A DNA stretch of 64,000 nt from a phage: assembly GCA_021081985.1 (NCBI GenBank), contig GCA_021081985.1_3639.1; one strand, 5' to 3'. The notes beneath the pieces were generated by a model that saw only the letters and a program-made list of their open reading frames with translations, had not been told where the DNA came from and made no database searches. Made by a program: the position numbers and the translations under genes. Every line of letters starts with the position of its first letter. Position 1 is the first letter of the stretch. This document shows, piece by piece, positions 7,857 to 28,550 of this stretch.

Positions 7857-8458
7857 GCTATGTCTAAAACAAAATCACGTATTGTATACCAATCATCTGT
7901 TTCAAGGTCTAGGGATGTTTTTAATTCTTCAGACTGATCATAAGGTGTTTTAAATTTAATTTTAATAACCTCTGGACCAAACTGATTAAGGAACTCATTC
8001 CTATCATCAATAATAACATCAACATCTACCCCAGCTTTATGCTTTGTTGCATAGAAAGCATGACCGGAACCAGGCTCTAAGCTGAAAAACTCTTCTGTTT
8101 CTCTTTTTAGAAAGCGCACTTTAGATGAAAAATGACCTTTCATACAATAAGAAACAAAATGATTAAAATGACCAGCTTTAGCCCATGCAGCTACTGCTTC
8201 CACTGCACCGGGGAGAGGCTTCAACTTATCGTAAAGATAAGGATCCTCCCAAAACTCATAAGGACTAAGCTGATGCACCTTCGCAGGTGGAAAATACTTA
8301 GAAACATTGTAATACAGCATACCTTGCGGGTTTGGTGGTGGTAATGATAAATCCATTTTAACACCATAAACCTTTTCCAACCACTCAATCCAAGGTGTCC
8401 CAGAGTCAACAAATGTCAAATCTACATCGATTCCGATCTTAAGCCTGCTCATCCTCAC
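7853..8458 (-). CDS. HAD-superfamily 5'(3')-deoxyribonucleotidase-like protein
   Basis: N-terminal IGIDVDLTF (DxDxT motif) and later GVDVDVIIDDR aspartate motif. Confidence 0.55.
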   Translation of the reverse strand: MRMSRLKIGIDVDLTFVDSGTPWIEWLEKVYGVKMDLSLPPPNPQGMLYYNVSKYFPPAKVHQLSPYEFWEDPYLYDKLKPLPGAVEAVAAWAKAGHFNHFVSYCMKGHFSSKVRFLKRETEEFFSLEPGSGHAFYATKHKAGVDVDVIIDDRNEFLNQFGPEVIKIKFKTPYDQSEELKTSLDLETDDWYTIRDFVLDIA

Positions 8459-9063
8459 TTCACCTCACCAAGACCAGCTACTGAAAAAATAAACCACTTA
8501 TGGATTGACTTGGCACAGTCTTCCATTTTACCATCAATATTCTCGAAATCTTTTTCGTACCCTCGGATCCCATCTAAATAGAGCCAATTACGACTATCAT
8601 TGCCCCAGTCACAACCTTCTCTGTGAATACGTGCCAAGAAGAATTTACCACCAGTTTCATAGGCATAGTTGGAAAGCTCAAGAATCTCTTCCTTAAAACC
8701 ACCATCTGAAAAAACAACCAACCATGCCTCTTGATGGTTTTTCTTTAAATTCTCTACAGCAGCTTTGCCAAAAGCATTCTGTCCGAAAATTGGTTTGATC
8801 ACATTCTCCGAACAATGAATCATCCATTTTCGTGGGGAAACCTGTATTCCATCAATTTGCAGGTAAGGGCAAGGTTTTTCTTTGTATCTACGGTCATAAA
8901 GACTGTTCCACAAATCTTTTGAGACTCCAGCAGATCTGGTAGCAACTTCAAAAAGTAGTTTCTTCACTTCTTCATGAAACACACCAGAGATATTCTCACT
9001 CAAATAAGAACAAATAGCGTCTTTTCCAGCACCTGGTGGTGCATTTAAAACAAGAATATGCAT
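8455..9063 (-). CDS. P-loop nucleotide kinase (dNMP kinase-like)
   Basis: Walker A LNAPPGAGKD at N-terminus; nucleotide-metabolism context. Confidence 0.45.
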   Translation of the reverse strand: MHILVLNAPPGAGKDAICSYLSENISGVFHEEVKKLLFEVATRSAGVSKDLWNSLYDRRYKEKPCPYLQIDGIQVSPRKWMIHCSENVIKPIFGQNAFGKAAVENLKKNHQEAWLVVFSDGGFKEEILELSNYAYETGGKFFLARIHREGCDWGNDSRNWLYLDGIRGYEKDFENIDGKMEDCAKSIHKWFIFSVAGLGEVK

Positions 9064-9077
9064 TCAATCTCCCACAA

Positions 9078-10052
9078 TCAGATGATATTAACAAGGGTAT
9101 TAGCCATCTCTTCTTTGGTGCGGATATTACGTCTGTCACGCATAACAGATCCACAACATTCGCAACGGTAAGCCTGAAATTTTGATAGATATGTTGTTCC
9201 TACCTTACCATCCATAACTGACAAATTATCAGAATTGCATCTTACACAACGAAGTTCAACATTATCATCCGGCTCATTAAAAAGTGTAACGTTAGGATGT
9301 TTTTTCATGAAAGGTCTTACTTTAAGATAAATACCTTCCAGTGTTGGAATATCACCAATGTTATAATATTCCATTTCCTCAAATGCCTTAACATCTCCGT
9401 GGCAGCATCGTTTCCACAAAGAGATTCCTTCGTGGTGTCTTTTACGAGCCTCTAGTTGAAAGTAGTTACACGCAGCTTCTAAGGAGTTAGAAGGTAATGA
9501 AAAAGCATTCTTTAACTCTGCAAGAGTATCAATAACAATATATGGCGATGGGGGGTTCATACCATGAAAAGCAAATCTTTGGTTTGCCCATCCTTTATCA
9601 AATTTAGCATTGTGTGCAATGAAAATATCACACTCATCCAAAATGTGCCACAAATCTTCCACAAGCTCTCTGTCATCATGGATATCTGTTTTAAATGTTT
9701 CGTAGTCAGGTAATTTACTACTTAATATTGCTGGATTGTCTAACCACTTCCCTGCCCATGTCAACATATATGGCTCGCTCTCTACGTGAGACGGAGAGAT
9801 GTTTTCTTTAATTCTTCTAAATACCCAAGCCAACGTTGGTGCTACTTCCACATCACCCAGAAAAATCTTTGCCCCTGGCTTTTTAGTGAGGGTCTCCACA
9901 ATCTGTTTTGATGCCTCTGTATTCTGAGCGTGAGCTTTAAGAACTAACCTGATATGTGACTCTTTACTTTCTTTTCCCAGATACCGACGAGCTATTTCTC
10001 TGTTGCTCAAACCTTTAGACTTTAACTCTAGAATTTCTTCTGCACTAAGCAT
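9078..10052 (-). CDS. DEDDh (DnaQ-like) 3'-5' exonuclease with N-terminal HTH and C-terminal Zn-ribbon
   Basis: LSNREIARRY HTH-like; DVEVAP, IAHNAKFD and YNIGD exonuclease motifs; CVRCN..CECCGS at C-terminus. Confidence 0.5.
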   Translation of the reverse strand: MLSAEEILELKSKGLSNREIARRYLGKESKESHIRLVLKAHAQNTEASKQIVETLTKKPGAKIFLGDVEVAPTLAWVFRRIKENISPSHVESEPYMLTWAGKWLDNPAILSSKLPDYETFKTDIHDDRELVEDLWHILDECDIFIAHNAKFDKGWANQRFAFHGMNPPSPYIVIDTLAELKNAFSLPSNSLEAACNYFQLEARKRHHEGISLWKRCCHGDVKAFEEMEYYNIGDIPTLEGIYLKVRPFMKKHPNVTLFNEPDDNVELRCVRCNSDNLSVMDGKVGTTYLSKFQAYRCECCGSVMRDRRNIRTKEEMANTLVNII

Positions 10053-13719: not shown

Positions 13720-14610
13720 TTATTTACCTGTAGGTAATGTTACAAACGGGGCTTGTGCTCCACTAGTCATATACACAGGTGTTACACCATTCCATTTATT
13801 AATTGCTTCAAGCTGCATAATCTCTGGATTTTTACGCAGGGCAGCACCACGTAGTTCAATAGACTCTGCATCACCTTTGGCAATCAAGATTTTAGCATCT
13901 GCTTCGCCTTGTGCCTGTAGGCGTTTAGACTCAGCCTCACCACGAGCAGCCTCGATACGTTTCTGAGCTTCAGCTTTCACTTGCTGAATTTCGTTTTCAC
14001 GAAGCAGTGCTTTTTGTGTTGCTTCGATCTTAGCATTGATGGAAGCCGTTACCTGTGGAGGATACACCAGATCGTCAGTATAAGACAGCTTCACAAGCAC
14101 GATACCAACAGGATCAAGTTTTTGTTTCAGATGCTTGGTTACACGCTCAAGCAGTTGTGTTTTTCCATCACCAGCCAGTGTACCGATATCCATTGAACCA
14201 GCTTCTTTGATCAAAGCATCAGAGATATTCTGGCGAATGTTTACCTCTGTAATTTCTTGCACACCTTTACGGTACGTCTGGAAAATAGTCGTTACTTTAG
14301 AACGATCAACATAATACTCAACACCAATTTTCGCAGAAACTGTCATAGAGTCTTTTGTCTGGAAATTGAATGGTTGGTCATAGTTATGCAACTGGTTAAA
14401 AGTCGGGAACTGATAAATCTCTTCGTTCCAAGTCAGCCAGTACTTACCTACCCCAACCTCTTGTTGTTGGACACCTTTTTCATCACCGTACAGATCAACT
14501 TTAACGCCAACGTAACCTGCTGGGACTGTTGCACGTTCACAACCTGTCAGGCCAATTGCGGAGACAGCAAGAATACCTGCAAAAATAACTCGTTTAATAG
14601 ATTTAAACAT
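13720..14610 (-). CDS. SPFH/band-7 (prohibitin/HflK-like) lipoprotein
   Basis: Lipobox LTGC after a hydrophobic N-terminus; band-7-like core; C-terminal coiled coil AEAQKRIEAARGEAESKRLQAQGEADAK. Confidence 0.6.
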   Translation of the reverse strand: MFKSIKRVIFAGILAVSAIGLTGCERATVPAGYVGVKVDLYGDEKGVQQQEVGVGKYWLTWNEEIYQFPTFNQLHNYDQPFNFQTKDSMTVSAKIGVEYYVDRSKVTTIFQTYRKGVQEITEVNIRQNISDALIKEAGSMDIGTLAGDGKTQLLERVTKHLKQKLDPVGIVLVKLSYTDDLVYPPQVTASINAKIEATQKALLRENEIQQVKAEAQKRIEAARGEAESKRLQAQGEADAKILIAKGDAESIELRGAALRKNPEIMQLEAINKWNGVTPVYMTSGAQAPFVTLPTGK

Positions 14611-15180: not shown

Positions 15181-15208
15181 ATTATAAAAATTTTATATGG
15201 TTTGTCAA
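15181..15208 (-). promoter_or_regulatory. sigma70-like promoter (TTGACA-16-TATAAT) on minus strand
   Basis: Minus-strand reading TTGACAaaccatataaaattttTATAAT upstream of the gene starting at 15156. Confidence 0.4.
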
Positions 15209-15433: not shown

Positions 15434-15461
15434 TTCCAAAACAAGCCCCTTATAAGGGGCT
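15434..15461 (-). terminator. palindromic hairpin, terminator-like (minus strand)
   Basis: AGCCCCTtataAGGGGCT with T-rich tract on the minus strand. Confidence 0.4.
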
Positions 15462-15482: not shown

Positions 15483-16172
15483 TTACACTTTAATAATCGG
15501 TTCAACAAAGGTAATTGGTTTCATAATTTTACCATTACCATCCATAAAGGCAACACGTTCACCGACCTGAACATGGATTACAGAATTATAACGTCCTTTT
15601 GAACGGCGTTCAATCTCTTTGCATTCAAACTCCAACATTTCTAGTTCTTTATCCTTGTAGTCAGGATATTTAACAAGCAGTTGTGTAATTGTTGGGAACT
15701 TAGAGTCGTTAGAATTAAGAACCTCTTCCATATTATACCCAAGATTGATATCCAATTTATAGCATAAAGCCACAACTTGTTTCAAAATCTCAGCATAATC
15801 AGAGATTTTCAACTTATCTTTATGTACCAAGTCAAGCAAACTACCGATTTGCAACTCAACCGTGTCTGAGGGAACCATGCATGACTCCCATTTTTCAGTG
15901 TCCCATTGCACCAAACGCAAAGCGTAAGAGCTTACGACAAAAAGATCACAGGCTGCATCAATAACCGCTGCCTTGTCGGATGATGATAAGGCTTCAATAA
16001 GCTCAGAAAGCTCCTCTTTAATAAGATTTGTTTGTAGTTTAATATCTGTTGACATTCCTCCACGACCAATCCTTGCTACCTCATTCCATTGGGCAACACG
16101 ATGACCATATGCAATCATGTTATCAGGCTTACTCATGGTTTCAAGTGTGGAATACATATTTTTTAAATTCAT
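15483..16172 (-). CDS. MazG-like nucleotide pyrophosphohydrolase (putative)
   Basis: IKEELSELIEALSSSDKAAVIDAACDL resembles the EExxE...D all-alpha NTP-PPase motif. Confidence 0.35.
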   Translation of the reverse strand: MNLKNMYSTLETMSKPDNMIAYGHRVAQWNEVARIGRGGMSTDIKLQTNLIKEELSELIEALSSSDKAAVIDAACDLFVVSSYALRLVQWDTEKWESCMVPSDTVELQIGSLLDLVHKDKLKISDYAEILKQVVALCYKLDINLGYNMEEVLNSNDSKFPTITQLLVKYPDYKDKELEMLEFECKEIERRSKGRYNSVIHVQVGERVAFMDGNGKIMKPITFVEPIIKV

Positions 16173-16181: not shown

Positions 16182-16553
16182 TTAATTTACTGCATCTGGT
16201 ATATGATCACCATCTGGTTGATCACGAATTATTCTTAGAGGTAACAAAGCACCATTTTTTCCTGTGAACAGACATTTATCTGCATAGCTACCATTCTTGT
16301 ACCAAGAGTATGATGTATTAACTTTATAAGTCATACCATCAAACTGGCAAGCAACAGTGTTAATTATTGGCCTAATAAGACAAAATGTAAGGATACCAAT
16401 AACAACAAACCATGCGATAATAATCTTGCGAATATTTGGTTTTACCCAATCAATAAAATCATCTAATTTATCCCGTCTGAACCTATATGCCAGATACACA
16501 CATACAGAGAACAGTACAGTAGTCAGTAGAACGAACACCCAATACCAAATCAT
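16182..16553 (-). CDS. membrane protein
   Basis: 123 aa with two hydrophobic helices. Confidence 0.3.
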   Translation of the reverse strand: MIWYWVFVLLTTVLFSVCVYLAYRFRRDKLDDFIDWVKPNIRKIIIAWFVVIGILTFCLIRPIINTVACQFDGMTYKVNTSYSWYKNGSYADKCLFTGKNGALLPLRIIRDQPDGDHIPDAVN

Positions 16554-16565: not shown

Positions 16566-17891
16566 TTAATATATAGGATCCCACGTCAAAGAATCTACCT
16601 CACGAACACATTTGCCAACAGGAAATTGCGGAACACCGTCATCGGTCCTTGCTTGGTATGTAAAAGTTATATACTTGCCGATAAGTTTTTTCATATTCTC
16701 TTGTGAGCGTTCTTCGTGTGTGCCTCTCATCTTACAGTTAAATTGTGTACCATCCTTCTCAGCACACAACAGGACACCTTCTCCATTCTTATCCTCAAAG
16801 GAATCAAGAACTCTGGCCTCACCATCCTGAAACAATTTCCACTTTTGAAGATCAGACGATCTTTGTCCAAACTCATACTTTCCGTGAAAGTTCCTTATTA
16901 CAACACCCTCATAACCTGCTTCCATAAACTCCTTGATGAGCATTTTAACACGATCCTCATCAGACACTATTGCTCCGTGCACTACTTTAATCAGGTTATA
17001 AGGCCATGTATACTCAGAGACTTTCTGTAAATTATTAAACCTACACTTGTCTGTGTCAGAAGACATCCATGGTGTGTCATCTTCCGAAGGTATATCGAAA
17101 ATATGATATTCTAAGTCTAAACTTGAATAACCACAATACTTATTAATATTTTTCTCTGGTTTCTTTGTGATAGGATGTTCTAACCCTTCGGAGTCTTTCC
17201 AAAACTCATCACCATTGTTAATTGCTTTTTCAAATCGCTTTATGTCTGATTGATAGTCTTTTTCTATCTCACATTCTATCTCTTCTGGTGTTCTCCATTT
17301 CTTAGCCAAAGAGACTATTTTCTGGAGACTTAACCCATGAATATACAACTCTCCATCAAACATTTTCAATCCTGTCTTTTTGGCTAGTTTAGACATCTGA
17401 TCAAGCAATTGGCCTTGTACAGGATATGTTTTATTGCCACGACTATTAAACACAGGCACGCCATCATCACCAACCAGAACAAGTGCTCTAACACCATCAA
17501 GTTTTGGTTGAACATGCAAAGGATACACTAAAGAACTTTTCCTTTTGATGGCATCATGTGCCAGCATTGGTGAGAAATCTTGGGTTTTTGTAAGATCATC
17601 CTTAGATACGCGATACCCAAGGCGTACTTGTTTTTCCCACTTAGATTTTGCCTCCAAAACAGCTTGTTCTGTATCAGTTGTCTCATTTTTCTTACCGATG
17701 TTTTTGGCAAAGCATTTTGTGCGTTTATACTGCATTTTACCGTTTTCTTTACCAAACTCAACAACAGTTTCTGATCCATCTGCCCACACATTCCACACTT
17801 GATATGTACCATCCCTGTTTAGGGCGTATAGTGTTGGAAGGTTATTTTCAAGCATTAAATACCTCGCTTGTGACAACAGGTTTTCCTTCAA
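16566..17891 (-). CDS. ATP-dependent DNA ligase
   Basis: Nucleotidyltransferase motif I KLDGVRAL (KxDGxR); 441 aa. Confidence 0.7.
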   Translation of the reverse strand: MKENLLSQARYLMLENNLPTLYALNRDGTYQVWNVWADGSETVVEFGKENGKMQYKRTKCFAKNIGKKNETTDTEQAVLEAKSKWEKQVRLGYRVSKDDLTKTQDFSPMLAHDAIKRKSSLVYPLHVQPKLDGVRALVLVGDDGVPVFNSRGNKTYPVQGQLLDQMSKLAKKTGLKMFDGELYIHGLSLQKIVSLAKKWRTPEEIECEIEKDYQSDIKRFEKAINNGDEFWKDSEGLEHPITKKPEKNINKYCGYSSLDLEYHIFDIPSEDDTPWMSSDTDKCRFNNLQKVSEYTWPYNLIKVVHGAIVSDEDRVKMLIKEFMEAGYEGVVIRNFHGKYEFGQRSSDLQKWKLFQDGEARVLDSFEDKNGEGVLLCAEKDGTQFNCKMRGTHEERSQENMKKLIGKYITFTYQARTDDGVPQFPVGKCVREVDSLTWDPIY

Positions 17892-18633
17892 GGTGATTTT
17901 CTACCAACTCAATAAGTTTTTGGTTGCTGAATGCTTCAACTGCTCCACAGCGCATTTGGTACACACCATATTTATCATACTGCTCTTGTTCAAAGTAATT
18001 GATCGCTGGGTTTATTACAACCAGTTTAATACCTCGTTTTGCGATTGCATGCAGCAATTCCCAGTTAAAGTCGATAACCTGATTAGAGCAGCCAACCAGA
18101 AGTACAAGATCTTGAGTATTCAAGTCATCAAGCATGGTAAACATGTCCTGATAAAGTGGTGCATTCTCACCGAAAAATACCACATTTGGCTTGCACCACC
18201 AGTAATCATCAGGGTCAACAACCGCATATCCGACATCAATCACACGTTTAGGAAACTCTTCACCATTCTGTACAACAAGCTCTTTGAGAAAACCATGTAC
18301 ATGGAGAATATCCTTCTTTTCAATGCCAGCACGTTCAAGCAGATCGTCAACGTTTGTTGTAAGATTACGTACTTGTCCAGGATAACGGTTATACCATTCT
18401 GCTACACGAAGATGTGCCATGTTGGGGTGCACAGTCTTCAATTCTTCACGGCGTTTGTTATAAAATTCGTGTGTTTTGTGGTAAAAATTACCACGAAATG
18501 CATGAATATTACATACTTCTTCAAGATCATATTCATCCCAAAGAGCTTTACCTGACGAAGTATCTGTACGGAATGTGCGAATACCGCTTTCTGTTGACAT
18601 ACCTGCACCACTAATCACAAGTAATCGACGCAT
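17848..18633 (-). CDS. Sir2-family (sirtuin-like) NAD-dependent protein
   Basis: GAGMSTESGIRTFR, TTNVDDL, HVHG, VVFFGE motifs; no CxxC...CxxC Zn ribbon seen. Confidence 0.65.
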   Translation of the reverse strand: MRRLLVISGAGMSTESGIRTFRTDTSSGKALWDEYDLEEVCNIHAFRGNFYHKTHEFYNKRREELKTVHPNMAHLRVAEWYNRYPGQVRNLTTNVDDLLERAGIEKKDILHVHGFLKELVVQNGEEFPKRVIDVGYAVVDPDDYWWCKPNVVFFGENAPLYQDMFTMLDDLNTQDLVLLVGCSNQVIDFNWELLHAIAKRGIKLVVINPAINYFEQEQYDKYGVYQMRCGAVEAFSNQKLIELVENHLEGKPVVTSEVFNA

Positions 18634-18641: not shown

Positions 18642-19049
18642 CTATTGTAATTTTAAAGAGTTACGTAAACGTGCTTCTTGACGGTCACGAATAAACTGCG
18701 GGACATCATGAATGCTTTCGTTACCATGATAATTTTCCACAACTACAGATGTTACATCATAGCAGTAGTTTTCTGCTAAGTCAAGATAAGGTTTCAACTC
18801 TTTCGCAGAAGTTGTTGTGTTTGAAACAATAATCTTTTCAACTTCATTCTGCATGTGGAGTTCTACTTTGTCACGACACCATTGATGAGCTTTGTGGATA
18901 TTTTCTTCTTTCCACTCATACACACCGTCTTCGGTGTAATGAAATTGGTCAGCTTCACACACAGGCCAACGACCATCATCAGACAACTCTTTAGCAAGAG
19001 TTGATTTTCCTGACCCAGAGACACCACGTAAAATAAATAACTTTTTCAT
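18642..19049 (-). CDS. P-loop polynucleotide-kinase-like protein
   Basis: MKKLFILRGVSGSGKSTLA Walker A; 135 aa. Confidence 0.5.
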   Translation of the reverse strand: MKKLFILRGVSGSGKSTLAKELSDDGRWPVCEADQFHYTEDGVYEWKEENIHKAHQWCRDKVELHMQNEVEKIIVSNTTTSAKELKPYLDLAENYCYDVTSVVVENYHGNESIHDVPQFIRDRQEARLRNSLKLQ

Positions 19050-19059: not shown

Positions 19060-19392
19060 TTAGTATTGGTGACGATAAAACTTTATACCTAAAGTGTTTT
19101 CGAAATATTCTCTCGCCAACATAAACTTGTTCACGGCAGATGGGTTAGAGCTATGTACGTGAATCTCTTTAAGATTCGTAAACTTACCATCATGAAGCTC
19201 ACGTTCAATATAGATGAAAGCATCGTAACCTTCCTCATCACCACCCAAATCATTATCAAAATGGATGGAATCAATGTCGCTATCACTCATAAATTTTAGT
19301 AATGAGTAGAAGCTAGAGAGATTCTTACACCATAAGGCATTAGGGTATCCATAATCTACTGGATTTCGCAGATCATCCAACCACAGTTTCAA
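19060..19392 (-). CDS. conserved hypothetical protein (MKLWLDDLRNP...FDNDLGG motif)
   Basis: 110-aa ORF between the kinase-like and ligase-like genes; family not assigned. Confidence 0.3.
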   Translation of the reverse strand: MKLWLDDLRNPVDYGYPNALWCKNLSSFYSLLKFMSDSDIDSIHFDNDLGGDEEGYDAFIYIERELHDGKFTNLKEIHVHSSNPSAVNKFMLAREYFENTLGIKFYRHQY

Positions 19393-20321
19393 ATTGTACC
19401 TCCGAAAAAATCCTCAATAATTTCACGACGGAATTGTTCATGCAAACATTCCCAATGTTCTTTAGAATAGTTATCACGCAAATAGTTTAAAAGGTTATAA
19501 TACTCTTCGTCAACTTTCTTCTTAGCTTCTTCTGGGTTTCCCCAAATCATATCCCACTTGTTCTTACCGCCACGCATCAAAAATTTCTTCGCCAAATAGT
19601 GTGGTGATTTTATCTTCAAGAGAAGATCTTGCTGTCCTGTAGCAGCACGTACAACAAACCCTTCATGTTTGCATTCTTTAGACATTTTCAGGATGTCTGA
19701 AAAGTGCATATTTATGTAAGTCTCTGGTCGTTTAAAACCGAACTCTTTTGCGATAAGATCCAGAGCTTTTTCACTAAGCATAGAAGTTAATTTGTCTTTA
19801 TGAAATCGAACACCAATCAAATACACACCTGCCTTTTCTGGTACAATGTGTGGGTCTGAAGGAGCGCAAATCTCAAAGATAAATGTTGTCTTTGGTTCTT
19901 CCACACATGATAACAACATTGGCAAATTAGTACATTCTTCCATGATCATACCTTTTGCAAGTTTTGCAAAATCGGAATCTAGAGTTCCTGTTGTTGAAAC
20001 AATTAGCTCACCATTGTATGAGCTTACTGCTGCCATGAAGCCATTAACTTTACGTGCTGCATTCACAACCATATCTTTTGGAAGATCAGTACCGTTCTCT
20101 AAATGATTGAAAATCTTGGTAAAAGGCCACACAACGATGTTGTCATCACTGTCCACAACCATACCACGGCAATCAAGTAAGCGACTGTCTTGATCCCACA
20201 AGTTTTCCCAAAAAACTTTGTTACTGTATTTCAAAACAGACAAACCTTTAAACTCACCACTGGTATAAGTCTTCTTTTTGACAAGGCCTTTTGATACTAA
20301 ATCTTCAACATTGAATTTCAT
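19389..20321 (-). CDS. RNA ligase-like nucleotidyltransferase (putative)
   Basis: KVNGFM motif I-like lysine nucleotidyltransferase signature; 310 aa. Confidence 0.45.
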   Translation of the reverse strand: MKFNVEDLVSKGLVKKKTYTSGEFKGLSVLKYSNKVFWENLWDQDSRLLDCRGMVVDSDDNIVVWPFTKIFNHLENGTDLPKDMVVNAARKVNGFMAAVSSYNGELIVSTTGTLDSDFAKLAKGMIMEECTNLPMLLSCVEEPKTTFIFEICAPSDPHIVPEKAGVYLIGVRFHKDKLTSMLSEKALDLIAKEFGFKRPETYINMHFSDILKMSKECKHEGFVVRAATGQQDLLLKIKSPHYLAKKFLMRGGKNKWDMIWGNPEEAKKKVDEEYYNLLNYLRDNYSKEHWECLHEQFRREIIEDFFGGTI

Positions 20322-20518
20322 TTGTCTTCACCGTCACTATTGTATGATTGTTTATTAAATGACTCAATTATACATGTTGATCGTCTTGCGTCAACAGATT
20401 GGCTTGTTAAATCTTTAGCAACAACTAGTTTTTCCACATCATCTTTTTTGATGGATCCGTAAGCACCAGAATCCATCATGAAGAATATTTTATCTTCTGT
20501 TATCTTGTGTATTTTCAT
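20318..20518 (-). CDS. hypothetical protein
   Basis: 66-aa ORF. Confidence 0.25.
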   Translation of the reverse strand: MKIHKITEDKIFFMMDSGAYGSIKKDDVEKLVVAKDLTSQSVDARRSTCIIESFNKQSYNSDGEDK

Positions 20519-20539: not shown

Positions 20540-21118
20540 TCAATGGCCATCAGCAGTGAAAACGTCTTTTTCCATACACATTTGGTATGCTTCTGGCAGA
20601 CCCAAAATTCTCCCATGTACATCCCAACCAACATCAAGAATCCGTCCTTTCGCACTGTAAGATCCGTGACTGTGCCCATGCAAGAACACAGACCCATAGT
20701 GAGATTTATTCCACGCGGCAAACGGGTAATGACTCATACAAATTTTTTGTTCATAATCGTTAAATTCGTAATAATCGCACACATCATGACCACGTTTTTT
20801 GAATGTTTTAATCGCATCAAAATTGTCATGATTACCTTTGACAAGGACGATATGCCCAACAAGTTCATCAAGAATTTCTTCAAGTCTTTTAATAACTTGC
20901 TTGCCACGACCAAAACAAAAATCACCAAGCACAAAAGTCACAGTATCGGCATCTGCGCCGTGGTTAAATTTCACTGTGAGGTCTTGGTTCATTTGTTCAA
21001 CGGTTTTGTACAAATCACCACGAAAACGTTTTGAACTCTCAAAGTTCAGGATGTTTTTATGCCAGTAATGTAAATCAGATGTTACACGGTATTTGGTTCC
21101 CATTTCTCTCTCCCTCAC
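20540..21118 (-). CDS. calcineurin-like metallophosphoesterase
   Basis: DLH, GDF, GNHD and GHSH metal-binding motifs in order. Confidence 0.7.
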   Translation of the reverse strand: MREREMGTKYRVTSDLHYWHKNILNFESSKRFRGDLYKTVEQMNQDLTVKFNHGADADTVTFVLGDFCFGRGKQVIKRLEEILDELVGHIVLVKGNHDNFDAIKTFKKRGHDVCDYYEFNDYEQKICMSHYPFAAWNKSHYGSVFLHGHSHGSYSAKGRILDVGWDVHGRILGLPEAYQMCMEKDVFTADGH

Positions 21119-21128
21119 ACAACAAAAA

Positions 21129-21566
21129 TCACTGTCGCTCTAACAAATCTTCTGCTGGATAAGCATACAGCATGTATTCCCAACCACGATGGTAATGTCT
21201 GTGTTGCCAGTTGATTAATTTTAGACACACAATGTTCACCACGTTCCTGTCCCCATGGATAAAAACACAAGTCTCAAGGATTGACTTTCCAAACTCAACA
21301 TGACTGTCAAGATACAGTTTTGTGTTGTATCTTTTTTCAGCATCCAGCATGATCTGTTTCAAGGCCAGAAATGCCTCGCAACACACAGATTTTTCATCAG
21401 AAATCATTTTGATATTCAAGCATTCACCCCCACACAGGCAACCACGCAAATCGTGTCTGATCACCACAACACAATCGGTTTGAAACAAACCTGTTTGACA
21501 CACAACAGGCATCGTCGTAGTGTCATGCCTAAACACAGACAGATATGATACGACGAAGATCCCCAC
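21129..21566 (-). CDS. Cys/His-rich hypothetical protein (first gene of the minus-strand block)
   Basis: 145-aa ORF; several Cys and an HRHYH stretch. Confidence 0.3.
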   Translation of the reverse strand: MGIFVVSYLSVFRHDTTTMPVVCQTGLFQTDCVVVIRHDLRGCLCGGECLNIKMISDEKSVCCEAFLALKQIMLDAEKRYNTKLYLDSHVEFGKSILETCVFIHGDRNVVNIVCLKLINWQHRHYHRGWEYMLYAYPAEDLLERQ

Positions 21567-22122
21567 ACAGAGTCACATAGTGACTTGTGACAACCCGAAT
21601 CCATGATTGAGATAAACACACAGAGACAAACCTGTAGGGTTTGTTGATGTGGGTTTATCTCAGAATGGCTCATGAGGGTTAGATGATCACAAGCTATCAG
21701 CGCAGTGAGCATCTTACACACTCACGTATTGCCTGAAGAGTCTCATCGACTCATGCTTTCAGGCAAAACACTATGAACTCTATGATTCGAAATCATCGAA
21801 CCATACGATTCGACTCAATCGAATCATATCAACAAAAATATTTAAAATCAAGTCTTGACATTCTTCAAGACTTAATGTATTTTAAATAAATTTTATATAA
21901 TATATTATTATATATAATACGTAGTATTATATTATATTAAATTATATTATATAATTTATATTATATTAGATCATATTAAATAGATCATAGTATTATAATA
22001 CGTAGTATTATATTTAATAGATCTTATAAGTTAGTTTAATTTGATCAGTTAGTATTGTGTCCCCAAAACGGGGACATACCCATGTCCCTGAAATGGGGAC
22101 ATATGGGAGGGGTTGACATTGT
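21567..22122. promoter_or_regulatory. divergent intergenic control region (AT-rich repeats, palindromes, promoter-like boxes)
   Basis: 556 bp non-coding between opposed gene blocks; IR gagataaac..gtttatctc (about 21610-21662), IR tgcctgaa..ttcaggca (about 21731-21766), gattcga/cgaatcat repeats, IR aagtcttga..tcaagactt with TTGACA (21850-21873), AT-rich attatat repeats (21880-22050), paired GTCCC..GGGAC hairpins (22058-22102), TTGACA at 22113-22118. Confidence 0.45.
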
Positions 22123-22548
22123 GTGGGGTTATGGGTAGCATTCTCGGTGTTGGATTACACACCGGAGTTTGCCTTGAAATCTAATGTTGGGGGTTTCCAT
22201 GTAAATCCGAAAGCTGGGTCATACATCGCTGTCCCGACAGAGTGGGTTTTTGATGAACGGTTATCACCAAGCGATCTGCAAAGATTGATACGCTTGTTGT
22301 GGAGATACGAGTATTTCAAGAATCTGAACCCTCTGGGTGGGGAACTGGTATTCTTTCCGTCACAACAATCCTTGTGTGGCCTGTTGGGGTGGAATGAAAA
22401 CTCACGAACCAAAGTGTCTGAATTTCTGTCTCGGATGGAGAGCTTTGGTTATATCAGGCGTGTTAGATCAGGATTTCAGGATTCTGATGGTAACGTGAAA
22501 CCAAGAAATTATATTATCGTCAATCGTATCAGAGGGGATAAATCATGA
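22123..22548 (+). CDS. putative winged-helix DNA-binding protein (start uncertain)
   Basis: 141-aa ORF from GTG; LIRLLWRYEYF...GYIRRVR helix-rich segment; track start lies inside promoter-like sequence so a downstream TTG near 22174 may be the real start. Confidence 0.3.
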   Translation: MGLWVAFSVLDYTPEFALKSNVGGFHVNPKAGSYIAVPTEWVFDERLSPSDLQRLIRLLWRYEYFKNLNPLGGELVFFPSQQSLCGLLGWNENSRTKVSEFLSRMESFGYIRRVRSGFQDSDGNVKPRNYIIVNRIRGDKS

Positions 22549-23354
22549 ATATTCGTTTGAGTTTGAACAAGCTACATGTGCCAGTTGACCATTTCACATT
22601 TAGTGGTGGTGAGGAGCAGATTAAGATCGATATGCGTCATGTTCCGCATGGTTCGATAGGTTTTGTTGATATCTTCGCTAGACTCAAGAACTCACAGGAT
22701 GTGATGTGTTTGGCACTGCTTGTTGATGCAGTTAATCGTCTTGGCAATTTGGATGTTGGTGTGGAAAAGGTTTTACACCTGCCGTACATTCCGTATGCTC
22801 GACAAGACCGAGTTATGAACCCTGGAGAATCTCTGTCGGTGAAAGTCTTTGCCACAATGATTAACTCGCTTGGTTTCCACAAAGTCATCGTCGATGATCC
22901 ACACAGTGACGTATCCGCAGCACTGATTGATAACGTGAAAATTCGTTCTCAGACTGATTTGTTCTTGAACATGAATTTTGATTTTGATCTGCTTACGGAC
23001 GAATCGCTTGTGTTGGTTGCTCCAGATGCAGGTGCACGCAAGAAGACCCAGAAGGTTGCTGATACCTTGGAACTATCTGTGGTTGAAGCAGGTAAAATCC
23101 GTGATGTGGGAACAGGGGCAATCACAGGCACAACAGTGTTTGGTGATGTTGGTGGGAAGACATGCCTGATTGTCGATGATATCTGCGATGGTGGGTTTAC
23201 GTTTACAAACTTAGCTCAAGCCTTGAAAGCTGCTGGTGCAAAACGTGTTATTTTGTATGTTACGCATGGAATTTTCTCTCGTGGGAAAGAATTTATTCTC
23301 GACGGTGGTGTTGACGAAATTTATGCATACTACGACTGGACAGAAAATTTTTAA
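22545..23354 (+). CDS. ribose-phosphate pyrophosphokinase (PRPP synthetase) family protein
   Basis: LPYIPYARQDR, VLVAPDAGA and LIVDDICDGGFT motifs. Confidence 0.8.
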   Translation: MNIRLSLNKLHVPVDHFTFSGGEEQIKIDMRHVPHGSIGFVDIFARLKNSQDVMCLALLVDAVNRLGNLDVGVEKVLHLPYIPYARQDRVMNPGESLSVKVFATMINSLGFHKVIVDDPHSDVSAALIDNVKIRSQTDLFLNMNFDFDLLTDESLVLVAPDAGARKKTQKVADTLELSVVEAGKIRDVGTGAITGTTVFGDVGGKTCLIVDDICDGGFTFTNLAQALKAAGAKRVILYVTHGIFSRGKEFILDGGVDEIYAYYDWTENF

Positions 23355-23418
23355 GTTGGTATTGACAAAGATACGTTTTAGTGAAAAAATACGTTTTTAG
23401 GATTGGAGGGTTGAGATC

Positions 23419-25134
23419 ATGCTTCACAAAGAAAGTCCATTGCTGTTTGCAGATTTTTATAAACCAAGTCACATCTCGATGTACGACAAACGTTCACAGT
23501 TTGTTCAAGACAACATGACACCACGCAATGCGAAACACTTTGTACACTTTGCAGATGATGACCATCGTGTAATGTTTGCTGGTCTTCAGGGATTTATCAA
23601 GTGGTTCCTGATTGACATGTTTAATAATAATTTCTTTGCTTTACCGAAAGAAAAGGCGATTCAGGATTACAAAGAGATTTGTGATTTGAGCATTGGGAAG
23701 GATGCTGTTGAAACTTGGGGTTTTGAGAGATTGCATGATCTTGGATATCTCCCAATTGAAATTAGAGCTTTGCCTGAAGGAACTCTTGTTCCTGTTCAGG
23801 TTCCTATGTTCACGATTCAGAACACGCACCCTGATTTTTACTGGCTGCCAAACTTCCTTGAGAGCGTGATCTCCTCGGAGACTTGGAAGACAATTACCAC
23901 GGCAACGACTTTCTGGCAATATCGTAAACTATCAGAACTGTGGGCAAAGAAAACATGTGATAACAACGATCACGTTCCTTTCCAGAACCATTGTTTTGCA
24001 TACCGTGGTGAAGCTGGAACACATGACGCAGCACAGAGCGAATTTGGGCAACTGATTAGCTCAATGGGCACAGATACAATTCCAGCGATTGTTTACGCAA
24101 ATCGCTATTACAACATGAAAGGTCGCTTTGTTGCTGGGTCTATTCCCGCATCTGAGCATAGCGTAGCGACAACGAACATTGGTTTTATTGTTGAGCGTAT
24201 CCAGCAGGAAAATCCTGACATGTCGCTTGCTGAAGCACGTTTTCGTGCTGAAGTTGAGTTCTTAAAGCGTTATGCAACAGAGATTTTTCCGTCAGGCTAT
24301 GCTTCATACGTCGCAGACAGCTATGATTTTTGGGCAATCATTACACAAGCAGCCAAAATCCTGAAAGATGAGATTATGTCTCGTGATGGCAAGCTGGTCT
24401 TCCGACCGGACAGTGGGATCCCAGAGCACATCATTGCTGGCTATCGTGTGTGCTCTCAGGAAGAATGGGCAACGGGACAGTGCTGTGATATGGATGCTGT
24501 GCTGTTTAAAAATGGCAAATATGTCACTCTGTACGAGATGTCCAGAGACACTTCTTGGATGCGAGATTCGGAAGGCAACCTCGTAGATTGGAAATCTTTG
24601 ACAGGTGATGAATTTACAAATTATCTTACCAAAGAGGAGGTTAAGGGTGCTGTACAATGCTTGTGGGAAATCTTTGGTGGTAGTGTAAACTCTTTGGGTT
24701 ACAAAGTTCTTGATAGCCATGTTGGTTTAATCTACGGAGACTCTATCACAATCTCTCGTGCTAAAGAGATCTTTGAGCGCCTTGAAGAACGAGGCTTTGC
24801 TTCCAGCAACATTGTGTTTGGTGTAGGATCTTATACAACGCAATATACAACCCGTGATTCTCTTGGGATGGCTGTAAAAGCTACTGGTGCTGTGATTGAT
24901 GGCAGACAAGTAATGGTTGTAAAAGAGCCTAAGACTGATCTTGGGAAGAAATCTGCGAAAGGTTTTGTTAAAGTTATTCGTGGTGATGATGGTGAGTTGA
25001 AGCTGGTAGATAATCTTGGTATTAATCAGGTATCTGACCCTGACAACGAGCTTAGAACAGTTTTTGTTAATGGTAAGCTGCTTGTGGATGAGGATCTTGA
25101 AGAAATTCGTCAAAGAGCTTTGTCACAGCTTTAG
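23419..25134 (+). CDS. nicotinamide phosphoribosyltransferase (NAMPT/NadV) family protein
   Basis: 571 aa; N-terminal LLFADFYKPSHISMY and overall NAMPT-like pattern; GGAGGG RBS. Confidence 0.8.
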   Translation: MLHKESPLLFADFYKPSHISMYDKRSQFVQDNMTPRNAKHFVHFADDDHRVMFAGLQGFIKWFLIDMFNNNFFALPKEKAIQDYKEICDLSIGKDAVETWGFERLHDLGYLPIEIRALPEGTLVPVQVPMFTIQNTHPDFYWLPNFLESVISSETWKTITTATTFWQYRKLSELWAKKTCDNNDHVPFQNHCFAYRGEAGTHDAAQSEFGQLISSMGTDTIPAIVYANRYYNMKGRFVAGSIPASEHSVATTNIGFIVERIQQENPDMSLAEARFRAEVEFLKRYATEIFPSGYASYVADSYDFWAIITQAAKILKDEIMSRDGKLVFRPDSGIPEHIIAGYRVCSQEEWATGQCCDMDAVLFKNGKYVTLYEMSRDTSWMRDSEGNLVDWKSLTGDEFTNYLTKEEVKGAVQCLWEIFGGSVNSLGYKVLDSHVGLIYGDSITISRAKEIFERLEERGFASSNIVFGVGSYTTQYTTRDSLGMAVKATGAVIDGRQVMVVKEPKTDLGKKSAKGFVKVIRGDDGELKLVDNLGINQVSDPDNELRTVFVNGKLLVDEDLEEIRQRALSQL

Positions 25135-26045: not shown

Positions 26046-26121
26046 GGCCCCTTAGCTCAGTGGTTAGAGCAGGTGACTCATAATCGCTTGGTCGCTGGTT
26101 AAAGTCCAGCAGGGGCCACCA
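26046..26121 (+). tRNA. tRNA-Met (anticodon CAT; could also be Ile2 or initiator)
   Basis: Manual cloverleaf: acceptor GGCCCCT/AGGGGCC, D-arm GCTC..GAGC, anticodon loop cTCATaa, T-arm GCTGG..CCAGC, encoded CCA. Confidence 0.75.
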
Positions 26122-26173
26122 AATGTGGCACACGAAATAAACTAGGTTTATTGTTTTCGGAGGAGAAAACTTA

Positions 26174-26497
26174 ATGGCTAAGAAACAGTCTGCTAAAAAG
26201 GTATCAGCTATCGAGGCGATCAAGCAACCTTTTCAGTTTGAATCAAAATCCACGCAGACACATTCTGCACCGCACGATGTGCGTCTTGGTGGCAAAACGC
26301 AAACTGTAGCAGTTCTGAAAAAACGCAAAGATGAAGACGGTAATACTGAAATGTATTATGAATCTGTGTCTCGTGTCATTGGTGGTGAAGTGATTTCTGC
26401 TTCCTATCGTATCCGTACTGGGAAAACAAAGCGTGAACGAGAAGTGAAACAGAAAACAAGCACTCCTGTAGGAAACGTTAAGAAAACTAAAAAATAA
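26174..26497 (+). CDS. hypothetical basic protein
   Basis: 107 aa, Lys-rich; GGAGGAG RBS. Confidence 0.35.
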   Translation: MAKKQSAKKVSAIEAIKQPFQFESKSTQTHSAPHDVRLGGKTQTVAVLKKRKDEDGNTEMYYESVSRVIGGEVISASYRIRTGKTKREREVKQKTSTPVGNVKKTKK

Positions 26498-26573
26498 TTT
26501 ACTGACGAGAGTGCCACCGTGAGCCAGCGTCATTAAACAAAGGGAATCACGGACATTCAGGAGGGTTGAGATT

Positions 26574-26765
26574 ATGATAGGATCTTTGCTTAAGATTGCA
26601 AGCGATGTAACAACAACGGCTGTTGAAGTGACTGCTGCGGTAACAACTCCGTTTGTTGATTTAGCATCAGATGCTATAGCAGCAGCAGACGAGATGATTT
26701 TGTCACCGACATCTGATCTTGTCCAAGATCTTTGTGATTCTATAAAAGATGCTGTAAAAGATTAA
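26574..26765 (+). CDS. hypothetical small acidic protein
   Basis: 63 aa; AGGAGGG RBS. Confidence 0.3.
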   Translation: MIGSLLKIASDVTTTAVEVTAAVTTPFVDLASDAIAAADEMILSPTSDLVQDLCDSIKDAVKD

Positions 26766-26773
26766 AATTTTTC

Positions 26774-26802
26774 TTGACATAGTTTTTGTTTTTCTGTATA
26801 GT
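26774..26802 (+). promoter_or_regulatory. sigma70-like promoter (TTGACA-17-TATAGT)
   Basis: TTGACAtagtttttgtttttctgTATAGT upstream of the ORF at 26839. Confidence 0.5.
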
Positions 26803-26838
26803 TACTTTATCAAAGCTAATTTACATAGGAGAGATTGA

Positions 26839-27486
26839 ATGTCTACTAAGATTTCCGTAACTCGTGCACTTGCTTCTATCTCTAAGATTGAAGATAAGAT
26901 CAATAAGCGCATTTATAACCTTGAATGTATTAAGATTGCAAAAGGAACTGAGAATAATTGTAAGATTCCTGGTTATATCGGCTCTGTTGATGATTTTAAG
27001 AAATCTGCGATCAACGACTATCAAAGTCTGCAAGACCTCTTGGCAGTTCGCGATGAACTGAAGGCAAAAATTGTCAAGTCTAATGCTGAGACAATTGTCA
27101 AAATTGGTAAGGTGTCTATGACAGTTGCTGAGGCAATCGAACGCAAACGGACGATTTGCTTTAAACAAGAGTTGTTAAACAAACTTTGTGCACAGCGTGC
27201 TTCTGCACAGCTTCTTCTGGCAAAAGAAGAAAAATCTCTGGAAGATAAACTTGAAAATGCCAGAGCGCCATATATCCAACGTGATAAAGCGCCAGATGCA
27301 GAGCAGATTAAGACTGTGGAAGCTCCCATTCGAATGATGAACACACCATCGGTTGTGGATCCTCTTGAACTGGCTTCTAAGATTCGTTCTCTTGAAGAAG
27401 AGATTGAAGATTTCTTGTCTAACGTTGATTTTGCGTTGTCTGAGTCAAACGCTAAGACAGAAATTGAGATTGAGCACTCTCTCTAA
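26839..27486 (+). CDS. hypothetical coiled-coil protein
   Basis: 215 aa; heptad-like charged stretches; AGGAGAG RBS. Confidence 0.4.
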   Translation: MSTKISVTRALASISKIEDKINKRIYNLECIKIAKGTENNCKIPGYIGSVDDFKKSAINDYQSLQDLLAVRDELKAKIVKSNAETIVKIGKVSMTVAEAIERKRTICFKQELLNKLCAQRASAQLLLAKEEKSLEDKLENARAPYIQRDKAPDAEQIKTVEAPIRMMNTPSVVDPLELASKIRSLEEEIEDFLSNVDFALSESNAKTEIEIEHSL

Positions 27487-27520
27487 AAGGCTCTGATAAT
27501 ATCATTATCGTTCCTTTGTT

Positions 27521-27733
27521 TTGAAATTTAAAACATTGCTTTTGATTAACGAAGTTTACATCATCTTGCCTCCTGGGGATTGGAGGTTAAATATTCCCCA
27601 CCATGTATCGTATATGTATGAGGATAATACAGAACATAGATGCAGCGAGGCACACGAAGATGCTTTGTTGTTTCCACTAAGTAAAAGTTCATACAATAAA
27701 GGTCAATGGTTAAATGTGAAAGATGAAACTTGA
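27521..27733 (+). CDS. hypothetical protein
   Basis: 70-aa ORF. Confidence 0.25.
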   Translation: MKFKTLLLINEVYIILPPGDWRLNIPHHVSYMYEDNTEHRCSEAHEDALLFPLSKSSYNKGQWLNVKDET

Positions 27734-27851
27734 AAGTTGACTCTTGAAAGATAAAATTTCGTTTATCATCTGAAATCCTTGACACAGGTTATGGCTCACA
27801 AGATATGGTCTGTAAAGCCTCAAGGCTGTTAATCGGAAGCAATGTCTTATT

Positions 27852-27926: not shown

Positions 27927-27928
27927 AT

Positions 27929-28530: not shown

Positions 28531-28550
28531 CATTAAGTGGGGTTTTTAAA

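Follow-up and report, generated by a model that had tools for sequence, protein, structure and literature searches.

The sirtuin locus and its neighbourhood

Within the window, the 64,000 nucleotides of phage DNA analysed here, a preliminary description had placed a Sir2-like open reading frame at 17848-18633; those boundaries proved exact, and the strand, which had not been named, is minus. The gene belongs to a minus-strand unit that runs from a first recognisable gene to a probable terminator as follows.

20540..21118, minus strand: calcineurin-like metallophosphoesterase, 192 aa, first recognisable gene of the unit (profile matches)
19389..20321, minus strand: T4 Rnl1-type RNA ligase, 310 aa (profile matches), overlapping the cREC gene by 4 nt
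19060..19392, minus strand: cREC protein, 110 aa, cyclic-phosphate processing receiver domain (PF20274)
18642..19049, minus strand: P-loop kinase, 135 aa (AAA_33; PHROG 2071 and, more weakly, PHROG 505 'polynucleotide kinase')
17848..18633, minus strand: sirtuin, 261 aa, ATG at 18633 and TGA at 17848-17850; PHROG 2162 / T5.102 family, phage clade
16566..17855, minus strand: ATP-dependent DNA ligase, probable start ATG 17855, as in an annotated 95%-identical homolog
15483..16172, minus strand: MazG-like nucleotide pyrophosphohydrolase, 229 aa, last gene of the unit
15444..15461, minus strand: G+C-rich hairpin followed by a T-run, AGCCCCTTATAAGGGGCT, probable terminator of the unit

The kinase gene ends 8 nt before the sirtuin start, where an AGGTGG can be read from the sequence five bases upstream of the ATG, and the DNA ligase, if begun at ATG 17855 and not at the TTG 17891 of the mechanical ORF list, overlaps the sirtuin stop by 8 nt. 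The 17 terminator-like sites, where 5.4 would be expected, amount to an enrichment, and a promoter scan was uninformative (31 sites against 30.7 expected). Pfam and PHROG profile matches put the RNA-repair-like cassette that had been noted beside the sirtuin directly upstream of it on the same strand, and the NAD+ gene pair reported from the same genome is likewise present, as Prs-like and NAMPT-like genes at 22545-25134. This NARP1-like pair lies 4-7 kb from the sirtuin on the opposite strand, both here and in related phages. The genes around the sirtuin reproduce exactly the type 2 neighbourhood of Iyer et al. 2022 (PMC9503650), in which a sirtuin is accompanied by a T4-like RNA ligase, cREC, a nucleotide kinase, MazG and sometimes a calcineurin-like phosphoesterase; all six components occur here on one strand, between 15483 and 21118.

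A conserved sirtuin core

Every sirtuin motif quoted in the preliminary description was found in the translation (GAGMS, aa 9-13; SGIRTFR, 16-22; NVDDL, 94-98; HVHG, 111-114; VVFFGE, 151-156), and motif alignment marks His113, within HVHG, as the catalytic residue. Mapped to the window, the functional segments are:

18568..18609, minus strand: NAD+-binding Rossmann motif and cofactor-binding loop, aa 9-22, GAGMSTESGIRTFR; G9, A10, G11, S16, G17, F21 and R22 invariant
18448..18462, minus strand: YNKRR, aa 58-62, class III Y-x-x-R signature, aligned with YNARR of CobB; Y58, R61 and R62 invariant (120 homologs)
18340..18360, minus strand: TTNVDDL, aa 92-98, equivalent of sirtuin TQNID; N94 and D96 invariant
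18292..18297, minus strand: HG, aa 113-114, catalytic histidine; invariant
18184..18291, minus strand: small-domain insert, aa 115-150, site of the Cys4 zinc in relatives; first CxxC replaced (V121...G124), second knuckle deleted between Y144 and W145
18166..18183, minus strand: VVFFGE, aa 151-156, FGE loop lining the substrate tunnel; V151, F153, F154 and E156 invariant

Membership of the Sir2 family, as proposed from the motifs, is borne out by the Pfam SIR2 profile (PF02146; E=6.4e-26, 91.8 bits against a cut-off of 24, profile positions 1-178 of 180) and by the PHROG 2162 'Sir2' profile (E=6e-101, positions 10-276 of 277), while SIR2_2, searched alongside SIR2, gave no match. E. coli CobB (1s5p) is the best solved relative (E=3.4e-19). 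Alignment to the Sir2 core had been set in advance as the test of the assignment, and the motifs do align, in the Pfam profile as well as with CobB, where each matches residue for residue (GAGxS, SGIRTFR, TxNxD, HG, (K/R)PxVVxFGE and Y-x-x-R, at an overall identity of ~27%). An AlphaFold (AF2) model of the protein (pLDDT 90.6, pTM 0.88) has two domains, Rossmann and small, and superposes on CobB, Sir2Af1 and SIRT5 with the same fold and domain order (TM up to 0.84); Foldseek returned a probability of 1.00 for all three and, for CobB, E 1e-17 and TM 0.73/0.84. Taken together, the Pfam, PHROG, CobB and Foldseek matches to the SIR2 family are far above chance.

The residues marked invariant above, together with N208, do not vary among 52 to 120 homologs with identities as low as 51%, and I187 and P209 are nearly invariant. 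Judged by this invariance, the whole deacylase apparatus, including hydrophobic tunnel residues that would suit a slender lysine side chain, is under strong purifying selection. The protein differs from CobB and other class III sirtuins in lacking the Cys4 zinc site, in being encoded by a lytic phage and in a clade-specific 4-residue insertion in the cofactor loop (TDTxSG, directly after aa 9-22, modelled with low confidence). GCSNQVI(N/D)F replaces the class III motif GTSxxVxPA, and W32, C41, Y51, T54, G135 and Y161 are invariant residues specific to the clade; NCBIfam CobB models (NF040867, NF001753 and others) score the protein at 97-115 bits, below their cut-offs of 243-320. The gene thus encodes a genuine NAD+-using sirtuin enzyme without zinc-binding cysteines, which is apparently active.

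Loss of the zinc site

The absence of CxxC zinc pairs noted previously is evident from the cysteines themselves: none of the four (41, 147, 182, 229) lies in a CxxC and only C147 falls between HG and FGE, a segment with no conserved cysteine across 120 homologs. The broader proposal that the zinc ribbon is missing stands for the Cys4 ligands, which are gone, but not for the fold, the three-stranded sheet of the small domain (strands 114-122, 130-133 and 146-151) being retained in the model. We propose that the small domain needs no metal to fold, its cysteine knuckles having been replaced or deleted while the beta-sheet is kept.

Loss of the structural zinc abolishes activity in classical sirtuins, which would favour viewing the protein as an inactive or purely structural remnant destabilised by the loss of this site. 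We consider such a remnant very improbable: catalytic and NAD+-binding residues are invariant in homologs, the family occurs in 1006 phage records, the small domain is confidently modelled (pLDDT 96-98 for residues 111-150) and zinc-free relatives are numerous. The zinc cysteines are absent from 49 of the 142 nearest 50%-cluster representatives and from 39 of 71 parsed bacterial relatives, many of them from Bacteroidota, and the zinc-free representatives checked keep the catalytic residues; zinc loss thus does not imply changed chemistry. In a crude neighbour-joining tree of the representatives, built without the zinc segment, the sirtuin falls in an all-zinc-free clade of 25 representatives, and the rough topology has a zinc-containing root and ~8 state changes. 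With zinc-free relatives common in phages and bacteria alike, we rejected the idea that the loss is an unusual, phage-specific novelty. A zinc-free small domain is shared with the Sir2/CobB proteins of KVP40-like Vibrio phages, for which the loss was reported in 2016 and the same concern over activity was raised (PMC5107563).

Predicted lysine deacylase activity

We rank a CobB-like lysine deacylase first among the possible functions, an RNA-repair enzyme resembling Tpt1 second and an NADase or ADP-ribosyltransferase third. The leading assignment, a zinc-free deacylase of the class III CobB/SIRT5 type, is a tentative one to which we would give slightly less than an even chance. In sequence and model the protein retains the NAD+ pocket in full and the catalytic histidine, along with the acyl-lysine tunnel loops (FGE and xNP) and the Tyr-x-x-Arg pair, which in class III sirtuins holds the acidic acyl group. 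In addition, lysine deacylation is biochemically proven for each of the best matches in sequence and fold (CobB, Sir2Af1 and SIRT5). With a pI of 4.6-6.05 the clade is acidic, as is the CobB core (5.5), whereas KptA, which binds RNA, stands at 9.4; this is weak evidence on RNA binding, since two other products of the operon, the RNA ligase and the kinase, are themselves acidic to neutral. The case for an acyl-lysine tunnel is read from residue conservation only, and sequence cannot confirm peptide binding because sirtuins bind peptides mostly through main-chain contacts.

As a deacylase, the protein would bind NAD+, and the carbonyl oxygen of an acyl-lysine would then attack C1' of the nicotinamide ribose and expel nicotinamide, after which His113 would activate the ribose 2'-OH and lead to free lysine and O-acyl-ADP-ribose. 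The acyl group may be acetyl, or more likely of a succinyl/malonyl type given the presence of Y58 and R61. The sirtuin is probably co-transcribed with the RNA ligase, cREC, kinase, DNA ligase and MazG-like enzyme, and on that ground its targets would most plausibly be host or phage nucleic-acid or translation proteins whose lysines are blocked by acylation. If this assignment is right, phages reset host lysine acylation.

The arrangement in the related phage arall, where the RNA-repair block occurs without a sirtuin and the sirtuin lies 33 kb away, also counts for deacylation, as it separates the sirtuin from that block. Weighing against it are the RNA-end-processing neighbours of the sirtuin in at least three separate phage lineages, which a general protein deacylase does not predict: the Rnl/cREC/kinase block in Vequintavirinae, HAD_SAK_2 in T5-like phages and a CCA-adding enzyme in one jumbo phage.

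Possible role in RNA repair

These neighbours bear on a second function, put forward in 2022 for the type 2 neighbourhood (PMC9503650, section 3.7.3), namely removal of RNA 2'-phosphates in the manner of Tpt1/KptA. The sirtuin would then be an NAD+-using RNA 2'-phosphotransferase analog, a non-homologous replacement of Tpt1 and the first member of its superfamily to act on nucleic acid, a role that we regard as possible but doubtful. An RNA 2'-phosphate would attack C1'' of NAD+ and expel nicotinamide, and the 2''-OH of ADP-ribose, activated by His113, would attack the phosphate. With the kinase, cREC acting as a cyclic phosphodiesterase and the Rnl1-type ligase, this would amount to healing and sealing of tRNA of the yeast/plant type (Trl1 + Tpt1) in a phage, the sirtuin stripping the 2'-phosphate left once the other three had repaired a cleaved tRNA. 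The by-products, nicotinamide and an ADP-ribose cyclic phosphate, the latter opened by cREC or the phosphoesterase, could feed the divergent NARP1-like pair and so regenerate NAD+. Were this so, an enterobacterial phage would carry a complete yeast-type tRNA ligation pathway, and sirtuin chemistry would extend from proteins to RNA.

The evidence for this role is contextual throughout. The genes for the phosphoesterase, RNA ligase, cREC, kinase, sirtuin, DNA ligase and MazG-like enzyme form a single minus-strand run, close together or overlapping and closed by the terminator, and the sirtuin thereby occupies the place in an RNA healing-and-sealing gene set where a Tpt1/KptA-like enzyme is expected. 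Although rearranged internally, the same block recurs at 17 Vequintavirinae-like loci; rV5, for example, has Rnl-cREC-Sir2-MazG in that order and the kinase and phosphoesterase on the other strand. Independent lineages offer parallels: in T5-like phages the Sir2 gene lies one small ORF from HAD_SAK_2, an RNA-repair phosphatase domain (E 5e-20), at ~35 loci, including those with a Sir2 allele diverged to 52%, and at the jumbo-phage locus L070 it is followed directly by a CCA-adding enzyme with an HD domain. Scans of the neighbourhoods in phAPEC8/Justusliebigvirus-like phages, at loci L038 and L052 and at jumbo-phage loci L065 and L067 returned only domains of unknown function or nothing. Fourteen tRNA genes, including tRNA-Lys(UUU), lie near the sirtuin locus. 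Chemically, PMC11417386 describes a two-step Tpt1 reaction that parallels sirtuin chemistry step for step; Tpt1 uses NAD+, releases nicotinamide and proceeds by C1'' attack followed by attack of the ribose 2''-OH, as is proposed for the sirtuin. A variant in which the enzyme deacetylates N-acetyl-aminoacyl-tRNA made by GNAT toxins also fits.

Several observations speak against action on RNA. We know of no sirtuin that acts on RNA, and the conserved narrow hydrophobic tunnel (V151, F153, F154, I187) fits a lysine chain better than a backbone-attached phosphate. Tpt1/KptA has an unrelated fold and family and is basic where the sirtuin clade is acidic; its domain, PTS_2-RNA (PF01885), had no match in the phage protein, for which SIR2 was the only Pfam match, whereas a KptA control gave E 3e-47. 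The T5-like carriers, which make up the majority of the sirtuin family, show neither RNA ligase nor cREC within 8 kb of that gene, and cREC homologs occur in only 13 Salmonella-phage records against 289 with the sirtuin. The separate block in arall weighs on the same side, the metallophosphoesterase could heal ends in the manner of T4 and leave no 2'-phosphate, and E. coli has a KptA of its own.

The phage distribution of KptA itself was searched with a query sequence validated only by its Pfam PF01885 match (E 3e-47). Homologs were found in 98 phage records (Erwinia, Dickeya, Klebsiella and Serratia jumbo phages, and Clostridioides phages), with no Escherichia or Salmonella phage among the top 10 of 13 genera in the search summary, a point in favour of the RNA-repair role. 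A complementary distribution of KptA and sirtuin was nevertheless rejected as evidence: given 1006 sirtuin carriers and 98 KptA carriers in a set of 50,697 records, only ~2 shared records would be expected by chance, so that the lack of overlap is not significant and is uninformative.

NAD+ metabolism and defence

A third function, which we hold to be unlikely, is that of an NAD+ glycohydrolase, NAD+ modulator or ADP-ribosyltransferase that cleaves NAD+ without deacylation or ADP-ribosylates a host protein or nucleic acid, whether for host reprogramming or to block NAD+-derived immune signalling. Some sirtuins are indeed ADP-ribosyltransferases or NADases (PMC9503650), and the neighbouring NARP1-like pair would buffer the loss of NAD+; beyond the present genome and its relatives, such a pair lies within 2.5-4.5 kb of the sirtuin at locus L063, and a NAMPT-like gene 1.7 kb away at L064. 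Depletion of NAD+ would, however, harm a phage that carries an NAD+ reconstitution pathway, and the tunnel, FGE loop and Y-x-x-R are all retained though unneeded for plain NAD+ hydrolysis. No macro-domain gene, the partner that marks macro-linked SirTM sirtuins, was found among the 15 neighbouring ORFs scanned.

A NADase of the defence type was rejected, as no PADLOC family matched at E <= 0.01 and the Pfam match is to SIR2, not SIR2_2. The Sir2 NADases of defence systems (ThsA, DSR1/2, SIR2-HerA and pAgo-associated SIR2) share with the phage protein a distant Rossmann-type superfamily and NAD+ as substrate. The phage protein differs from them in being a single domain with no sensor or partner (SLOG, HerA, pAgo or TIR), in having repair enzymes as neighbours and in keeping the deacylase tunnel motifs. 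The Sir2 placement made at the outset is thereby kept and narrowed to a canonical CobB/SIRT5-like sirtuin, while the kinship with defence NADases that it had brought into view falls away.

Distribution in phages

A search of phage records gave PHROG 2162 homologs in 1006, of which 873 reached a coverage of at least 80%, and no homolog above 39% identity was found in the cellular genomes sampled; in the sampled data the clade is restricted to phages. The sirtuin is a direct member of this family, which includes T5.102 of T5, the 'Sir2-like protein' of rV5, Mydo and SP15 and the Sir2/CobB of KVP40-like Vibrio phages, and shows no substantive difference from it. The gene, its zinc loss and its RNA-repair neighbourhood are already known and in print, so that as a sequence feature it adds little: its nearest relatives are annotated as Sir2, the family has a named PHROG entry, and the two unusual traits have been published. 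No published biochemical or genetic experiments on a phage sirtuin were found in the literature, and over a thousand lytic phages, belonging to at least four lineages, conserve the family. Small size, a single domain, a confident model and a compact operon make this allele as good as any for assays. Its amino acid identity is 51-70% to the proteins of rV5, Mydo and T5 and 96% to annotated proteins of phages 19-1-2 and vB_EcoM_TH18.

Sequence and structural identity of the sirtuin

The ORF at 17848-18633 on the minus strand (261 aa; start ATG at 18633, preceded by AGGTGG in the window sequence; stop TGA at 17848-17850) carries every sirtuin motif listed in the preliminary description, namely GAGMS (residues 9-13), SGIRTFR (16-22), NVDDL (94-98), HVHG (111-114) and VVFFGE (151-156). 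The Sir2-family membership proposed there is borne out by a match to the Pfam SIR2 profile (E 6.4e-26, positions 1-178 of 180), and the protein is without reasonable doubt a sirtuin. It also matches PHROG 2162, 'Sir2 (NAD-dependent deacetylase)' (E 6e-101), and among solved structures the closest in sequence is E. coli CobB (1s5p, E 3.4e-19), with Sir2Af1/Af2 and SIRT5 next. The CobB motifs align residue for residue, including FYNARRR of CobB with FYNKRRE of the query. An AlphaFold2 model built from an alignment of 52 homologs (pLDDT 90.6, pTM 0.88) has low confidence only in the C-terminal tail and at residues 23-26 of the cofactor-binding loop, which is normally mobile. Foldseek searches of the PDB with this model again ranked CobB first (E 1e-17, TM 0.73/0.84), then Sir2Af1 and SIRT5. 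None of the PADLOC defence models matched the query, on which ground identity as a defence-type NADase was rejected, and we consider NADase or ADP-ribosyltransferase activity improbable. The NCBIfam CobB models do match, with scores far under their cut-offs, and CobB orthology was likewise rejected. Taken together, these sequence and model comparisons identify a canonical class-III-like sirtuin that is neither a defence NADase nor a CobB ortholog.

Residues invariant in the alignment (G9, A10, G11, S16, G17, F21, R22, W32, C41, Y58, R61, R62, N94, D96, H113, G114, G135, K148, P149, V151, F153, F154, E156, Y161 and N208) cover the entire NAD+ pocket together with the catalytic His, the FGE loop that lines the tunnel, and the Tyr/Arg pair, which in the class III sirtuins SIRT5 and CobB binds succinyl or malonyl carboxylates. 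Selection is maintaining the protein as an enzyme, and we regard an inactive remnant as very improbable.

Loss of the zinc site

The CxxC...CxxC pairs are absent, as first described: none of the four cysteines (41, 147, 182 and 229) is paired as CxxC, and C147 is the sole cysteine in the stretch from the catalytic HG to the FGE loop. In alignments with zinc-containing relatives, the first CxxC (e.g. KCIKCE in the relative P0139) falls on V121-Q-N-G124, and the segment with the second CxxC knuckle is deleted between Y144 and W145. Among 120 homologs sharing 51% identity or more, 41% of which have C147, the small-domain segment has no conserved cysteine. In the model the small-domain sheet is still three-stranded (114-122, 130-133 and 146-151; pLDDT 96-98). 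The zinc ligands are gone, yet their scaffold remains.

A survey of the 142 full-length best matches among 1.84 billion 50%-cluster representatives found at least four cysteines in the zinc segment of 82 and none or one in 49. Nearly all 142 keep F21, R22, Y58, N94, D96, H113 and E156; positions 61 (the Arg of Y-x-x-R) and 208 are more variable. In a crude neighbour-joining tree of these representatives, from which the zinc segment was left out, the query falls inside an all-zinc-free clade of 25; the root is inferred to be zinc-containing, with about eight state changes. The nearest bacterial or archaeal relatives, sampled as one genome per species, share just 31-39% identity, and zinc cysteines are missing in 39 of 71 parsed cellular relatives, many of them Bacteroidota. 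Zinc loss is thus not very unusual in this branch of sirtuins.

Genomic context

Features around the sirtuin, minus-strand genes in their order along that strand
20540-21118, minus, metallophosphoesterase
20318-20518, minus, 66-aa ORF
19389-20321, minus, Rnl1-type RNA ligase (Rnl)
19060-19392, minus, cREC (cyclic-phosphate processing receiver domain protein)
18642-19049, minus, P-loop kinase
17848-18633, minus, sirtuin
16566-17855, minus, ATP-dependent DNA ligase
16182-16553, minus, 123-aa ORF without family match
15483-16172, minus, MazG-like pyrophosphohydrolase
15444-15461, strong G+C-rich, bidirectional hairpin-plus-T terminator
22545-23354, plus, Prs-like gene (TIGR01251, 143 bits, above cut-off)
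23419-25134, plus, NAMPT/NAPRTase-like gene (NF006629, 475 bits, above cut-off)
26046-32377, plus, 14 tRNA genes

The RNA-repair-like cassette said to adjoin the sirtuin is indeed present on the minus strand (Rnl, cREC, kinase and phosphoesterase). Several gene junctions in this unit overlap by 4-8 nt and the remaining gaps are at most 21 nt. A perfect sigma-70 consensus promoter (12/12; TTGACA, 16-nt spacer, TATAAT) lies at 15181-15208 on the minus strand, about 240 bp downstream of the terminator; with these two elements, one transcription unit is delimited from the next beyond the MazG-like gene.

The NAD+ gene pair noted in the same genome is also confirmed (22545-25134). The pair and the sirtuin/RNA-repair unit are transcribed in opposite directions from one intergenic region, and Mydo-like and related phages show the pair in synteny. 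Its domains are those of the phage NARP1 pathway (Adps and Namat), in which NAD+ is rebuilt from ADP-ribose and nicotinamide. A divergent region of about 1 kb (21119-22122) separates the minus-strand repair unit from the plus-strand HTH/NARP1-like unit; apart from several promoter-like and hairpin sites, its sole content is a doubtful 145-aa ORF with a GTG start (21129-21566). The tRNA cluster comprises Met, Thr, Cys, Tyr, Gly, Gln, three Ser, Lys(UUU), Asn, Pro, Leu and Phe; anticodon nucleases classically attack tRNAs of the Lys(UUU) type, a point that bears on the nearby RNA-repair operon.

The window proteins served as queries in a screen of 71 loci, 4 of them in GenBank phages and 67 in IMG/VR contigs. 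The Rnl/cREC/kinase/phosphoesterase/DNA-ligase/MazG block accompanies the sirtuin in only 17, all Vequintavirinae-like and with some rearrangement; rV5 has the order Rnl-cREC-Sir2-MazG, with kinase and phosphoesterase on the opposite strand. About 35 T5-like loci have, in place of the Rnl block, Sir2, a small ORF, HAD_SAK_2 (PF18143, 'HAD domain in Swiss Army Knife RNA repair proteins', E 5e-20) and DUF7415. In a jumbo phage (L070, IMGVR_UViG_3300020084_000003; 8727-9941), the gene directly after a distant sirtuin homolog (34% identity) encodes a CCA-adding tRNA nucleotidyltransferase that has an HD domain, so that an unrelated lineage also shows a link to tRNA repair. Arall (Justusliebigvirus; Escherichia phage, MN850584; L152 and L153) has the cREC/phosphoesterase-like/Rnl/kinase/DNA-ligase block intact without a sirtuin, beside a NAPRTase-like gene; its sirtuin is found at a distance of 33 kb, where its neighbours are a cytosine methyltransferase and unannotated genes. 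The remaining lineages screened had no informative neighbours. The association with RNA repair is thus real and has been met repeatedly, in independent lineages, yet it is not obligatory.

Inferred function

We tentatively favour a CobB-like lysine deacylase, an activity predicted because every determinant of deacylase chemistry, down to Y-x-x-R and the residues of the narrow hydrophobic tunnel, is invariant, because the closest characterised relatives are all deacylases, and because the sirtuin clade is acidic (pI 4.6-6.05, versus 9.4 for KptA, a Tpt1-type RNA 2'-phosphotransferase). Because many bacterial relatives are zinc-free too, loss of the metal need not signal a new substrate. A putative Tpt1-like RNA 2'-phosphotransferase is possible but rather unlikely. 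It would fit the repeated association with RNA-end enzymes and the parallel between Tpt1 and sirtuin chemistries at each step; kinase, cREC and Rnl together are the counterpart of the three activities of fungal Trl1, after whose action a 2'-phosphate remains to be taken off by an NAD+-dependent enzyme (PMC10946426 and PMC11417386). A KptA search returned no Escherichia or Salmonella phage among the best 10 of 13 genera, which is in the same direction and not statistically meaningful. The deacylase accordingly ranks first, ahead of the RNA 2'-phosphotransferase, the NADase or ADP-ribosyltransferase and, last, the inactive remnant.

The family is known and widely annotated in phages, and both of its notable traits are already published. 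Skliros et al. 2016 (PMC5107563) modelled the Sir2/CobB proteins of Vibrio phages phiSt2 and phiGrn1 and noted their loss of the zinc site, and Iyer et al. 2022 (PMC9503650) described the neighbourhood of sirtuin, RNA ligase, cREC, kinase, MazG and phosphoesterase and hypothesised that the sirtuin removes RNA 2'-phosphates in the manner of Tpt1/KptA. Our literature search found no experimental work on any phage sirtuin. The remaining interest of the phage sirtuin rests entirely on its substrate.

Distribution among phages

The window phage belongs to the Vequintavirinae (rV5-like), with Escherichia phages 18-1-2, 19-1-2, 24-2-1 and vB_EcoM_TH18 as closest records (91% nucleotide identity), all four of which annotate the gene as 'NAD-dependent protein deacetylase of SIR2 family'. 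By tblastn, 1006 of 50,697 phage records carry a sirtuin homolog, versus 377 for cREC; carriers include T5-like Demerecviridae (T5.102 gene), Vequintavirinae, Stephanstirmvirinae, KVP40-like Vibrio phages and some jumbo phages. Between T5-like loci L045-L048 and L004 plus L013-L033 (sirtuin at 8001-8840), the sirtuin alleles differ at about 48% of amino acids, and the Sir2/HAD_SAK_2 arrangement persists with the Sir2 allele 52% identical; the flanking genes are far closer (HAD_SAK_2 89%, small upstream ORF 86%), which looks like allelic replacement inside a fixed slot.

The minus-strand gene at 13720-14610 encodes an SPFH/Band-7 protein whose N-terminus resembles that of a lipoprotein (…GLTGC…). 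It is 86-91% identical in Mydo-like phages, where its neighbours are 40-70% identical to those of the window, so this gene is unusually conserved or recently exchanged. The sirtuin and cREC of 'Campylobacter phage' A147, C3 and B15 (MG065644, MG065656 and MG065650; ~143-151 kb) are of rV5/phAPEC8 type and near-identical to E. coli phage genes, and the Campylobacter host label of these records looks doubtful.
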